DNA from: Escherichia coli
Lineage (GTDB): Bacteria; Pseudomonadota; Gammaproteobacteria; Enterobacterales; Enterobacteriaceae
Direction: 5' to 3' (one strand)
DNA: 64,000 nt
NCBI RefSeq assembly: GCF_003334305.1
Contig: NZ_QOWS01000004.1
Below the pieces are notes generated by a model. It did not search any database. It was not told the DNA's origin and saw only the letters and a program-made list of their open reading frames with translations. The position numbers and the translations under genes were made by a program. Below are positions 16,836-21,472 of the stretch, one piece after another (position 1 is the stretch's first letter; every line of letters starts with the position of its first letter).

Positions 16836-18200
16836 TTGATTACACATATTAGCCCGCTTGGCTCCATGGATATGTTGTCGCAGCTGGAAGTGGATATGCT
16901 TAAACGCACCGCCAGCAGCGACCTCTATCAACTGTTTCGCAACTGTTCACTTGCCGTACTGAACTCCGGTAGTTTGACCGATAACAGCAAAGAATTGCTG
17001 TCTCGTTTTGAAAATTTCGATATTAACGTCCTGCGCCGTGAACGCGGCGTAAAGCTGGAACTGATTAATCCCCCGGAAGAGGCTTTTGTCGATGGGCGAA
17101 TTATTCGCGCTTTGCAGGCCAACTTGTTCGCGGTCCTGCGTGACATTCTCTTCGTTTACGGGCAAATCCATAACACCGTTCGTTTTCCCAACCTGAATCT
17201 CGACAACTCCGTCCACATCACTAACCTGGTCTTTTCCATCTTGCGTAACGCTCGCGCGCTGCATGTGGGTGAAGCGCCAAATATGGTGGTCTGCTGGGGC
17301 GGTCACTCAATTAACGAAAACGAGTATTTGTATGCCCGTCGCGTCGGAAACCAGCTGGGCCTGCGTGAGCTGAATATCTGCACCGGCTGTGGTCCGGGAG
17401 CGATGGAAGCGCCGATGAAAGGTGCTGCGGTCGGACACGCGCAGCAGCGTTACAAAGACAGTCGTTTTATTGGTATGACAGAGCCGTCGATTATCGCCGC
17501 TGAACCGCCTAACCCGCTGGTCAACGAATTGATCATCATGCCAGATATCGAAAAACGTCTGGAAGCGTTTGTCCGTATCGCTCACGGTATCATTATCTTC
17601 CCTGGCGGTGTGGGTACGGCAGAAGAGTTGCTGTATTTGCTGGGAATTTTAATGAACCCGGCCAACAAAGATCAGGTTTTACCATTGATCCTCACCGGCC
17701 CGAAAGAGAGCGCCGACTACTTCCGCGTACTGGACGAGTTTGTCGTGCATACGCTGGGTGAAAACGCGCGCCGCCATTACCGCATCATCATTGATGACGC
17801 CGCTGAAGTCGCTCGTCAGATGAAAAAATCGATGCCGCTGGTGAAAGAAAATCGCCGCGACACAGGCGATGCCTACAGCTTTAACTGGTCAATGCGCATT
17901 GCGCCAGATTTGCAAATGCCGTTTGAGCCGTCTCACGAGAATATGGCTAATCTGAAGCTTTACCCGGATCAACCCGTTGAAGTGCTAGCTGCCGACCTGC
18001 GCCGTGCGTTCTCCGGTATTGTGGCGGGTAACGTAAAAGAAGTCGGTATTCGCGCCATTGAAGAGTTTGGTCCTTACAAAATCAACGGCGATAAAGAGAT
18101 TATGCGTCGTATGGACGACCTGCTACAGGGTTTTGTTGCCCAGCATCGTATGAAGTTGCCAGGCTCAGCCTACATCCCTTGCTACGAAATCTGCACGTAA
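16836..18200 (+). CDS. ppnN: Pyrimidine/purine nucleotide 5'-monophosphate nucleosidase PpnN (YgdH, LOG family)
   Basis: 454-aa [25 protein letters not shown]... with the LOG-family motif [10 protein letters not shown]. Confidence 0.93.
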
Positions 18201-18757
18201 TCTCCCCCTCCCCCGGTGACGTTTGTTGCCGGGTTTTCTCGTTTTTGGTCACTTACTCATCAACTCATTTCATTTGTTATATGAATGTTTCTTACCACCC
18301 TCACGCGACAAATATCATCACAGTTAATATGTCATACAATTTATGTTGCAACGCAAACGTTTCCCTATTTTCATAAACCGTATTTTATCGCTATGAAAAA
18401 GAAATTATCGCCATGATTAACTAAAAGTATTGATTTTTTCAGTTCAACCTACATATATTGCGCGCCCCGGAAGAAGTCAGATGTCGTTTAATGGGCAAAT
18501 ATTGCCCTTAAATTCTCTTTTACTTTTGATTTACAGAGTAAAGCGTTGGGATAATCTATCTTCCAAGTAGATTATTGTATTTGAGATCAAGATCACTGAT
18601 AGATACATAACTTGTGTGTATCTTTCCGCCCTCAAATTATTACGGCGGTAAATGATTAAGCCATCGCCGATAGACAGATTTCATTTTTACGGTCAGGCAC
18701 CTTCCCGGGCTGAACTGGCTAAAAGCTGAATTATTTGCATTCCTCCAGGAGAAATAG

Positions 18758-20047
18758 ATGGAAACGACTCAAACCAGCACGATTGCGTCGAAAGACTCTC
18801 GTAGTGCCTGGCGCAAGACAGACACCATGTGGATGCTGGGCCTTTACGGCACGGCAATCGGCGCGGGCGTGCTGTTCCTGCCAATCAACGCCGGTGTTGG
18901 CGGTATGATCCCGCTGATCATCATGGCTATCCTTGCGTTCCCGATGACATTTTTTGCACACCGCGGCCTGACTCGCTTCGTACTGTCTGGTAAAAACCCG
19001 GGCGAAGACATCACCGAGGTTGTAGAAGAACACTTTGGTATTGGCGCAGGTAAACTGATTACCCTGCTCTATTTCTTCGCTATCTACCCGATCCTGCTGG
19101 TTTATAGCGTAGCAATCACCAATACAGTTGAAAGCTTCATGTCTCACCAGCTGGGTATGACACCACCGCCGCGTGCGATTCTGTCGCTGATCCTGATCGT
19201 GGGTATGATGACCATCGTTCGCTTCGGTGAGCAGATGATCGTTAAAGCGATGAGTATTCTGGTATTCCCGTTTGTTGGCGTACTGATGCTGCTGGCTCTG
19301 TACCTGATCCCGCAGTGGAACGGCGCAGCACTGGAAACGCTGTCTCTGGACACTGCATCTGCAACCGGGAACGGTTTGTGGATGACCCTGTGGCTGGCAA
19401 TTCCGGTAATGGTGTTCTCGTTCAACCACTCTCCGATCATCTCTTCTTTCGCCGTTGCGAAGCGTGAAGAGTACGGCGATATGGCAGAACAGAAATGCTC
19501 GAAGATCCTTGCATTCGCACACATCATGATGGTGCTGACCGTAATGTTCTTCGTCTTCAGCTGCGTACTGAGCCTGACTCCGGCAGACCTGGCTGCGGCT
19601 AAAGAGCAGAACATCTCGATTCTGTCTTACCTGGCTAACCACTTTAACGCACCGGTTATCGCGTGGATGGCTCCGATTATCGCGATTATCGCTATCACCA
19701 AATCCTTCCTCGGCCACTACCTGGGCGCACGTGAAGGCTTCAACGGTATGGTGATTAAATCTCTGCGTGGTAAAGGTAAGTCTATCGAAATCAACAAGCT
19801 GAACCGTATCACTGCGCTGTTCATGCTGGTAACGACCTGGATTGTTGCCACCCTGAACCCGAGCATCCTGGGTATGATTGAAACCCTGGGCGGCCCAATC
19901 ATCGCGATGATCCTGTTCCTGATGCCGATGTACGCAATTCAGAAAGTACCGGCAATGCGTAAGTACAGCGGTCACATCAGCAACGTATTCGTTGTCGTGA
20001 TGGGTCTGATTGCAATCTCCGCAATCTTCTACTCTCTGTTCAGCTAA
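18758..20047 (+). CDS. sdaC: Serine:H+ symporter SdaC
   Basis: 429-aa polytopic membrane [49 protein letters not shown]... (HAAAP family); RBS ggag 8 nt upstream. Confidence 0.96.
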
Positions 20048-20055
20048 GTCCTTTC

Positions 20056-20090
20056 GCGCCGCTTTCGGGCGGCGCTTCCTCCGTTTTAAC
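20056..20090 (+). other. GC-rich hairpin in sdaC-sdaB spacer (possible partial terminator or processing/attenuation element)
   Basis: gcgccgctttcgggcggcgc forms a 7-bp stem with a tttcgg loop, followed by ttcctccgtttt; it lies between two co-oriented genes of one operon. Confidence 0.4.
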
Positions 20091-20104
20091 GCGATGTATT
20101 TCCT

Positions 20105-21472
20105 ATGATTAGCGTATTCGATATTTTCAAAATCGGCATTGGCCCTTCCAGTTCTCATACCGTTGGACCAATGAAAGCGGGTAAACAATTTACCGACGAT
20201 CTGATTGCCCGTAACCTGCTTAAAGACGTGACCCGCGTGGTGGTTGACGTGTACGGCTCGCTCTCTCTGACCGGTAAAGGCCACCACACTGATATCGCCA
20301 TTATTATGGGCCTGGCGGGTAACCTGCCGGATACCGTGGATATCGATTCCATCCCCGGTTTTATTCAGGATGTGAATACTCATGGTCGCCTGATGCTGGC
20401 AAACGGTCAGCATGAAGTGGAGTTCCCGGTTGATCAGTGCATGAACTTCCATGCCGACAACCTTTCTCTGCATGAAAACGGTATGCGCATTACCGCACTG
20501 GCGGGCGATAAAGTCATTTACAGCCAGACTTACTACTCTATCGGCGGTGGCTTTATCGTTGATGAAGAACATTTTGGCCAGCAGGATAGCGCACCGGTTG
20601 AAGTTCCTTATCCGTACAGTTCAGCAGCCGATCTGCAAAAACATTGTCAGGAAACCGGGCTGTCACTCTCTGGCCTGATGATGAAAAACGAGCTGGCGCT
20701 GCACAGCAAAGAAGAGCTGGAACAGCACCTGGCGAACGTCTGGGAAGTCATGCGCGGCGGTATTGAGCGCGGTATTTCTACCGAAGGCGTGTTGCCTGGC
20801 AAACTGCGCGTACCACGCCGTGCTGCGGCACTACGCCGGATGCTGGTCAGCCAGGATAAAACCACCACTGACCCGATGGCGGTTGTTGACTGGATCAACA
20901 TGTTTGCACTGGCAGTGAACGAAGAGAACGCCGCTGGCGGTCGCGTGGTGACTGCGCCGACTAACGGTGCGTGCGGGATTATCCCGGCTGTGCTGGCGTA
21001 CTACGATAAGTTTATCCGCGAAGTGAACGCTAACTCACTGGCTCGTTACCTGCTGGTAGCCAGTGCCATTGGTTCTCTTTATAAGATGAACGCGTCAATT
21101 TCTGGTGCTGAAGTCGGCTGCCAGGGTGAAGTTGGTGTGGCGTGCTCAATGGCGGCGGCTGGTCTGGCAGAACTGTTAGGTGCAAGCCCGGCGCAGGTGT
21201 GCATCGCGGCGGAAATCGCCATGGAGCACAACCTCGGTCTGACGTGTGACCCGGTCGCCGGACAGGTCCAGGTGCCATGCATCGAGCGTAACGCCATTGC
21301 GGCAGTAAAAGCGGTGAACGCCGCACGTATGGCGCTACGCCGTACCAGCGAGCCGCGCGTCTGCCTCGATAAAGTTATCGAAACCATGTACGAAACAGGT
21401 AAAGATATGAACGCCAAGTACCGCGAAACCTCTCGCGGCGGCCTGGCAATGAAGATCGTTGCCTGCGATTAA
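20105..21472 (+). CDS. sdaB: L-serine dehydratase 2 (L-serine deaminase, Fe-S)
   Basis: 455-aa ORF MISVFDIFKIGIGPSSSHTVGPMKAGKQFTDDL..., recognised as E. coli SdaB. Confidence 0.96.
   Translation: MISVFDIFKIGIGPSSSHTVGPMKAGKQFTDDLIARNLLKDVTRVVVDVYGSLSLTGKGHHTDIAIIMGLAGNLPDTVDIDSIPGFIQDVNTHGRLMLANGQHEVEFPVDQCMNFHADNLSLHENGMRITALAGDKVIYSQTYYSIGGGFIVDEEHFGQQDSAPVEVPYPYSSAADLQKHCQETGLSLSGLMMKNELALHSKEELEQHLANVWEVMRGGIERGISTEGVLPGKLRVPRRAAALRRMLVSQDKTTTDPMAVVDWINMFALAVNEENAAGGRVVTAPTNGACGIIPAVLAYYDKFIREVNANSLARYLLVASAIGSLYKMNASISGAEVGCQGEVGVACSMAAAGLAELLGASPAQVCIAAEIAMEHNLGLTCDPVAGQVQVPCIERNAIAAVKAVNAARMALRRTSEPRVCLDKVIETMYETGKDMNAKYRETSRGGLAMKIVACD

Follow-up and report, generated by a model that had tools for sequence, protein, structure and literature searches.

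Comparative anatomy of the ppnN-sdaC intergenic region in Escherichia coli: a conserved CRP core with a predicted start and an apparently lineage-specific upstream module

Background

In the class II arrangement of a CRP-activated promoter, the CRP site is centred at -41.5 and the -10 hexamer occupies -12 to -7. The control region of sdaC in Escherichia coli resembles such promoters (galP1, melAB type) in three respects: its 16-bp CRP site would overlap the -35 position, where no recognisable -35 element is seen; a -10-like hexamer begins 29.5 bp downstream of the centre of this site; and the sdaCB operon is cAMP-induced, with the CRP site occupied in vivo (PMC4287617). It differs from them in that the sdaC start is a predicted one, in that a base other than the consensus T always occupies the third position of the first half-site, and in that there is an additional, weaker CRP motif 15 bp further down, a feature foreign to the standard architecture. 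The tandem promoters of gal (P1/P2) offer another likeness, as sdaC appears to possess two sigma-70-type elements of the same orientation, one positioned for CRP and the other CRP-independent, and up-mutations in the CRP-independent element are selected when cAMP is absent. However, the two sdaC elements are about 165 bp apart instead of a few bases, and the upstream one has its own lineage-specific YieP activator sites.

Downstream of these elements, repression by the small RNA ArcZ at the ribosome-binding site has been described for sdaC, tpx and STM3216, and here there is no difference to report, since what the region contains is that very interaction as published: positions -13 to -2 of the mRNA are complementary to the seed of processed ArcZ, and the target is conserved across the family. 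With the leaders of amino-acid riboswitches and attenuators, sdaC shares a long leader in front of an amino-acid transporter and catabolic operon, in which a few local hairpins can be drawn. Unlike these leaders, the sdaC leader has no Rfam match, no consensus fold and no conserved leader peptide; nor is its start codon preceded by a terminator hairpin and U-run, and its folding energy is ordinary.

The sdaCB operon serves to take up and detoxify serine; it is important for growth on serine and for survival once glucose is exhausted. An initial annotation of this locus had suggested multi-factor control, a suggestion that is supported and already published, with inputs from YieP, CRP, Lrp, a sigma-70 / sigma-S promoter and ArcZ. 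Publications have demonstrated experimentally the binding and effect of YieP, the occupancy by CRP, the repression by ArcZ and the effect of insertions in the distal -10 element. The comparative anatomy presented here is a modest addition to this picture: a conserved CRP core with class II geometry, a lineage-specific distal/YieP module, and a predicted start near K-12 position 2928102.

Results and discussion

Extent, composition and conservation of the spacer

The spacer occupies positions 18201-18757 of the window, i.e., of the whole 64,000-nt stretch of DNA that was analysed, between ppnN (16836-18200, with its TAA stop codon at 18198-18200) and sdaC (18758-20047, with its ATG at 18758); sdaB is the next gene after sdaC. 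The length of 557 bp given by the initial annotation is therefore exact, and the described AT-richness holds as well, G+C accounting for 212 of the 557 bases (38%). Calculated in 200-nt windows, the G+C content is 0.34-0.39 within the spacer versus roughly 0.50-0.58 in the adjoining coding sequence, and it stays at 34-39% across about 450 bp. We found the spacer in all of the 5426 complete E. coli genomes (5426/5426) at an identity of at least 95%; the K-12 version is 556 bp long, one base being missing relative to position 18204 of the window. RefSeq annotates nothing inside the spacer in either strain A7 or K-12. A protein-occupancy study used K-12 coordinates 2927672-2928228, which are precisely the ppnN-sdaC spacer, as "the sdaC promoter" (PMC8282354). 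The spacer is the already studied, and largely known, control region of sdaCB, and neither a hidden gene nor a new kind of element.

Scanning one genome per species, we obtained 80 sdaC loci, with encoded proteins of 87-100% identity; almost all belong to named Enterobacteriaceae. The upstream neighbour of sdaC is ppnN in 76 of the 80, and among the other four, which gave no ppnN call, three had too little upstream DNA to judge. The 76 orthologous spacers that could be extracted range from 436 to 648 bp with a G+C content of 0.36-0.48, so that all are long and all are AT-rich. In total, 77 spacers entered the spacer alignment, and 73 spacers from non-Escherichia Enterobacteriaceae entered the comparison of open reading frames (ORFs). 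Along the 77-spacer alignment conservation is very uneven. The upstream half is plastic between genera, with positions 18294-18338 missing from over half of the other genera, and the best-conserved block is 18565-18680. The conservation analysis that had been proposed for this region therefore finds conservation that is sharply localised in this block and not merely compositional.

The CRP sites and a predicted proximal promoter

Near the upstream end of the conserved block lies a CRP site, TGAGATCAAGATCACT (18582-18597, centre 18589.5), which is identified by its consensus match, by a ChIP-seq motif and by its conservation. It has two mismatches to TGTGA-N6-TCACA and is the sole match in the spacer at up to two mismatches. 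The motif scans that the initial annotation had proposed were thus productive for CRP, with this one match, and unproductive for Lrp, for which the spacer contains no match to the SELEX consensus at up to two mismatches. In the ChIP-seq data for CRP in ETEC H10407, the sdaC peak has two motifs, AGTGATCTTGATCTCA and AGTTATGTATCTATCA (PMC4287617), and these are the reverse complements of 18582-18597 and of 18597-18612, respectively. The latter interval is the second, weaker CRP motif, TGATAGATACATAACT, the right half of which is poorly conserved. The first site, on the other hand, is matched with up to two substitutions in 77 of the 77 spacers. Its half-sites are conserved, while bases 18589-18590 in the central N6 vary, a combination that is the signature of protein recognition. 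The first half-site reads TGAGA, TGGGA or TGCGA in every spacer examined, and in none of them does it read as the consensus TGTGA.

The distance from the start of this CRP site to TGTATCTTTCCG is exactly 35 bp, without any indel, in all of the 70 genomes (70/70) in which a match to the block follows the site. TGTATCTTTCC is nearly invariant in the 77-spacer alignment, and the hexamer TATCTT (18619-18624), which agrees with TATAAT at four of the six positions, is invariant across genera. Based on this spacing and conservation, we infer a proximal promoter core on the plus strand at 18619-18631, consisting of TATCTT as a -10-like element and a G+C-rich discriminator, and along with it the proximal start, operation by a class II mechanism and a sharing of tasks with the distal promoter described below. 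The start is predicted to lie near 18631 (about 2928102 in K-12), which would give a leader of about 127 nt. With a start at this position, the CRP site would be centred at -41.5 and TATCTT would span -12 to -7. We also considered a class I arrangement, with CRP at -61.5 and either AATTAT (18635-18640) or TATTAC as the -10 element, and rejected it, since these hexamers are weak or lack the T at -7, the candidate -35 is not conserved, and the spacing is off the correct helical face.

The conserved block also contains the inverted repeat that had been given as an example of short inverted repeats in the spacer, which we located as AGATACA-N9-TGTATCT at 18601-18623, overlapping both the second CRP motif and the putative -10. 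Such repeats are indeed present, and modestly above chance: there are five perfect 7-mer inverted pairs with loops of 3-20 nt, compared with 0.96 +/- 1.2 in dinucleotide shuffles, 1.6% of which reach five. The example itself, however, is not a conserved hairpin. Its 3' arm, TGTATCT, is invariant across genera and lies within the block of the putative -10, whereas its 5' arm, AGATACA, which lies in the second CRP motif, varies at 18602, 18605 and 18606 without compensation. Because conservation is confined to a single arm, we rejected a hairpin at 18601-18623, whether of RNA or of DNA; the repeat most likely reflects the chance juxtaposition of two protein-recognition elements, the CRP motif and the -10.

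Another inverted repeat, ATAATCTA-N9-TAGATTAT, is located just upstream of the CRP site at 18551-18575. Aligned to it, many genera have CCAC-N7-GUGG, with one apparent compensatory change. This pair of arms is at best a candidate hairpin, since the predicted folds disagree between genomes.

The upstream part and the distal promoter

Directly 3' of the ppnN stop codon, the consensus scan detected a hairpin and T-run resembling an intrinsic terminator (18212-18246, plus strand), with a 9-bp stem containing six G-C pairs and a 4-nt loop, followed by TTTTCTCGTT. This is the sole terminator-like site in 18100-18900. Further downstream on the same strand are two sites for the GntR-family regulator YieP, ATTTGTTATATGAAT (18272-18286) and ATATGTCATACAATT (18327-18341), both of which match the published sequences with zero mismatches (PMC8282354). 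The evidence for YieP at sdaC consists of a specific gel shift, agreement with ChIP-exo, and a change in lacZ reporter activity upon scrambling of both sites or deletion of yieP, and the second site is the one beneath the IPOD-HR occupancy and the ChIP-exo peak (PMC8282354). In the comparison across genera, the first YieP site is present in Escherichia spacers only. The second lies mostly inside the gap stretch 18294-18338, and a similar site occurs in one non-Escherichia genome, that of Citrobacter amalonaticus S646. Judged by this distribution, YieP control of sdaC looks like a recent lineage-specific acquisition. It would be a lineage-specific overlay on the conserved CRP core. The comparative picture as a whole refines a known system.

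Lrp has also been reported to act at the sdaC region (PMC8282354, PMC10882989), and an Lrp site taken from EcoCyc has been drawn about 200 bp downstream of the YieP peak (PMC8282354). Scans of the spacer for FNR and ArcA-like sites gave nothing convincing. A repeat search found two direct copies of TTATCGC(T/C)ATGA on the plus strand, 20 bp apart (18385-18416), about 50-80 bp upstream of the distal start inferred below. Their TTATCG core is partly conserved in other genera, and the first copy resembles half of an FNR-type site, with two mismatches.

The distal promoter, of sigma-70 type, was found by the consensus scan as TTGATT-18-TATATT at 18430-18459 on the plus strand (9/12 matches), with its -10 hexamer at 18454-18459 and a G+C-rich discriminator behind it. 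Its start would be near 18466, giving a leader of about 291 nt. The evidence for its activity comes from the evolution of a cAMP-less strain, in which insertions arose repeatedly at K-12 positions 2927924 (+A) and 2927928 (+ATT) (PMC8546631, Table S1). These PsdaC* insertions are gain-of-function mutations that raise sdaC promoter activity and enable growth on serine, and they were assigned by the authors to the -10 box of a sigma-70 / sigma-S promoter (PMC10882989, PMC8546631) whose discriminator is G+C-rich (PMC10882989). After correction for the 1-bp indel, the insertions map to positions 18453 and 18457 of the window, in or beside TATATT. The +A at 18453 brings no obvious improvement of the hexamer, so that the exact assignment of the distal -10 is not secure. 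The distal hexamers are recognisable in Salmonella and poorly conserved outside Escherichia and Salmonella.

The authors of recent work on the region took this distal element as the sdaC promoter, and stated in 2024 that no sdaC promoter had been experimentally verified (PMC10882989). There is no sdaC entry in those portions of the start-site text of Kim 2012 and Mendoza-Vargas 2009 that were available to us.

In most other genera, a well-conserved motif, TG-TAGCCTTCGCGCC, is found downstream of the distal promoter. E. coli has a different sequence in its place (18488-18512), which includes the perfect hairpin GGGCAA-ATA-TTGCCC at 18493-18507.

Two tandem promoters as a probable explanation

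We consider it moderately probable that sdaCB is served by two promoters, a conserved, CRP-dependent proximal one and a CRP-independent, lineage-specific distal one. The spacer would then be a transcriptional and post-transcriptional control region for serine uptake and deamination, through which several regulators and two tandem promoters act. After the ppnN terminator, an Escherichia-specific upstream module would comprise the two YieP sites and the weak distal sigma-70 / sigma-S promoter, which would be independent of CRP and is strengthened by the PsdaC* insertions selected in the cAMP-less strain. About 165 bp downstream, the CRP site and TATCTT would form an ancestral core, common to all Enterobacteriaceae examined, and a class II CRP-activated promoter at this core would account for catabolite control. 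Both transcripts would have a leader of at least 127 nt, ending in a ribosome-binding site that can be masked by the Hfq-dependent small RNA ArcZ.

Besides the conservation pattern and the fixed spacing, one consideration leads to this reading. The CRP site would be at about +123 from the distal start, which is not an activating position, yet sdaC is cAMP-induced and, as a whole, CRP/cAMP-activated (PMC10882989); two promoters are the simplest reading of this. The two-promoter picture also explains why promoter-up mutations in a cAMP-less background arose 165 bp upstream of the CRP site: if the CRP-dependent promoter is silent without cAMP, such mutations of a cya strain are expected in the distal -10. 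Against it stands the position of the YieP sites, about 300-350 bp upstream of the predicted proximal start, which is far for a direct activator, so that YieP more plausibly serves the distal promoter. Other points against it are the first CRP half-site, which never reads TGTGA, the agreement of TATCTT with TATAAT at no more than four of six positions, the published treatment of the distal element as the promoter, and the insecure assignment of the distal -10.

The leader RNA and the ArcZ site

The long 5' untranslated region that the initial annotation had put forward is likely: transcripts from the distal promoter are predicted to begin with about 291 nt of leader, and those from the CRP-positioned one with about 127 nt. 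As a whole, this leader shows little sign of a common fold. From the putative -10 to the start codon, RNAalifold found no family-wide fold (-0.77 kcal/mol), the sole predicted pairs being three between a CCUCC element and the Shine-Dalgarno sequence, and a 57-nt sub-region gave no consensus structure (0 kcal/mol). Compared with shuffled sequences, the E. coli leader is not unusually stable either (z = +0.39 for 145 nt and -1.34 for 310 nt). Hence neither a consensus fold nor unusual stability marks it as a structured leader, and isolated short helices alone are supported.

The better supported of these helices is GUCAGG / CCUGAC, enclosing about 30 nt on the plus strand at 18692-18731, the arms of which are the alignment columns for 18692-18697 and 18726-18731. 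Its evidence is covariation: 80.6% of cells are paired versus 19-40% in slid controls, 61 cells are changed on both sides versus 21.5 in shuffles (with 0 of 500 shuffles reaching 61), and double-sided changes occur at six of the six pairs. Most genera show the helix clearly; in E. coli it is degenerate, TCAG/CTGA and one further pair being all that can form. Both candidate starts lie upstream of the helix, which therefore cannot tell the promoter models apart. In Klebsiella, Raoultella, Yokenella and Trabulsiella (eleven loci), about 18-20 nt of the leader are missing, and these deletions remove the 3' arm, indicating that the helix is dispensable in at least one large clade.

A small stem-loop with an A-rich loop, GGCGGU / AUCGCC in E. 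coli, lies on the plus strand at 18644-18668. In other genera it takes the form ACGG / CCGU and variants, with different arm sequences and a register that shifts between genera. The arm windows pair better than the shuffled mean in 89% of the 70 distinct orthologues, and in the commonest register, ACGG/CCGU, 67% of cells are paired versus 15-46% in slid controls. Support for this putative helix is moderate only, because its register differs between genera. CCGCC/GGCGG (18626-18648) was rejected as a conserved helix, as its register shifts between genera and it competes with the stem at 18644-18668; it may simply be the G+C-rich discriminator.

At the end of the leader, the ArcZ pairing site covers the Shine-Dalgarno sequence (GGAG, 18747-18750) on the plus strand at 18745-18756. 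In both Salmonella and E. coli, sdaC is repressed by ArcZ, which base-pairs with positions -13 to -2 of the mRNA (PMC11331407, PMC7213987). In our sequence, UUUC-CCUGG from UUUCCCUGG, the 5' terminus of E. coli ArcZ after processing, pairs with CCAGG-A-GAAA at 18745-18754, as an ArcZ target should, and CCAGGAGA at the ArcZ and ribosome-binding site is nearly invariant in the alignment. The CCUCC that resembles an anti-Shine-Dalgarno sequence lies one base upstream of GGAG (18742-18751) and is conserved in most genera; it is too near the Shine-Dalgarno sequence for a stable hairpin, with 3 bp predicted.

Putting promoter and leader together, we hold with roughly even confidence the fuller proposition that the main ancestral promoter of sdaCB would be, instead of the distal element, the class II CRP promoter near 18631, conserved base for base throughout the Enterobacteriaceae, that the distal promoter and the YieP sites would be a recent Escherichia addition, and that a covarying helix immediately upstream of the ArcZ-targeted ribosome-binding site would have been largely lost in E. 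coli.

Alternative explanations and coding potential

A single distal promoter near 18466 with a 291-nt leader would be an alternative, in which the block 18565-18680 acts as RNA or as a downstream protein-binding region: CRP might bind within transcribed DNA, or the leader might be structured and govern elongation, stability or translation. It is the sole promoter discussed in the literature that we consulted, and mutations there raise expression; moreover, one leader helix covaries (18692-18731), a second is moderately supported (18644-18668), and folding of the 291-nt leader is slightly more stable than that of shuffled sequences (z = -1.34). However, the distal hexamers are poorly conserved beyond Escherichia and Salmonella while the downstream block is nearly invariant, and the pattern in that block is one of conserved half-sites, a variable N6 and fixed spacing, not of compensatory change. 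RNAalifold returned no consensus structure, the covarying helices are downstream of 18631 and so fit either model, and activation by cAMP cannot come from CRP bound at +123. We therefore regard a single distal promoter as rather unlikely. The spacer might instead be AT-rich mainly as a platform for nucleoid proteins, such as filaments of H-NS, Fis, IHF or Lrp, with no further architecture. The G+C content of 34-39% over about 450 bp, the low G+C in all orthologues and the reports of Lrp are in favour of this idea, but specific YieP and CRP sites have been documented experimentally, conservation is localised instead of compositional, and the Lrp SELEX consensus is without a match at up to two mismatches. 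As a full account it seems to us improbable, although it is compatible with the two-promoter explanation as an additional layer.

Least of all do we expect a hidden gene in the spacer, be it a small RNA, an attenuation leader peptide or a small protein, which we judge highly improbable. The length of the region and the mild enrichment of inverted repeats would suit it, and E. coli has two ATG-initiated ORFs here, one of 29 codons (18481-18570) with a purine-rich stretch before it and one of 25 codons (18652-18729). Both, however, are intact in 0 of the 73 orthologous spacers, and the ORF at 18481, plausible by eye, was rejected as it is not conserved. More generally, none of the 19 ORFs of at least 12 codons on both strands is intact in more than 2 of the 73 non-Escherichia spacers, which bears out the earlier statement that the spacer has no credible ORF, and RefSeq annotates nothing in K-12. 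The accompanying proposal of an unannotated small RNA has no support, as there is no Rfam match, internal terminator, family-wide fold or unusual folding energy: covariance models applied to both strands of 17800-19200 gave no match at E <= 1, the scan found no terminator for a small-RNA gene in the spacer beyond the one of ppnN at 18212-18246, and the consensus scan found no promoter-like or terminator-like sites on the minus strand. For a leader-peptide attenuator, the leader has neither a conserved ORF nor a terminator-like site.

A much longer ORF, of 613 codons, runs on the minus strand at 18731-20572, antisense to all of sdaC and extending into sdaB, in the codon-complementary frame. We rejected it as a gene and consider it a by-product of codon bias. 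The sdaC gene contains no TTA, CTA or TCA codons, and 43 of its Leu codons are CTG; because those three codons are absent, the antisense frame is free of stops until the first TCA of sdaB at 20621.
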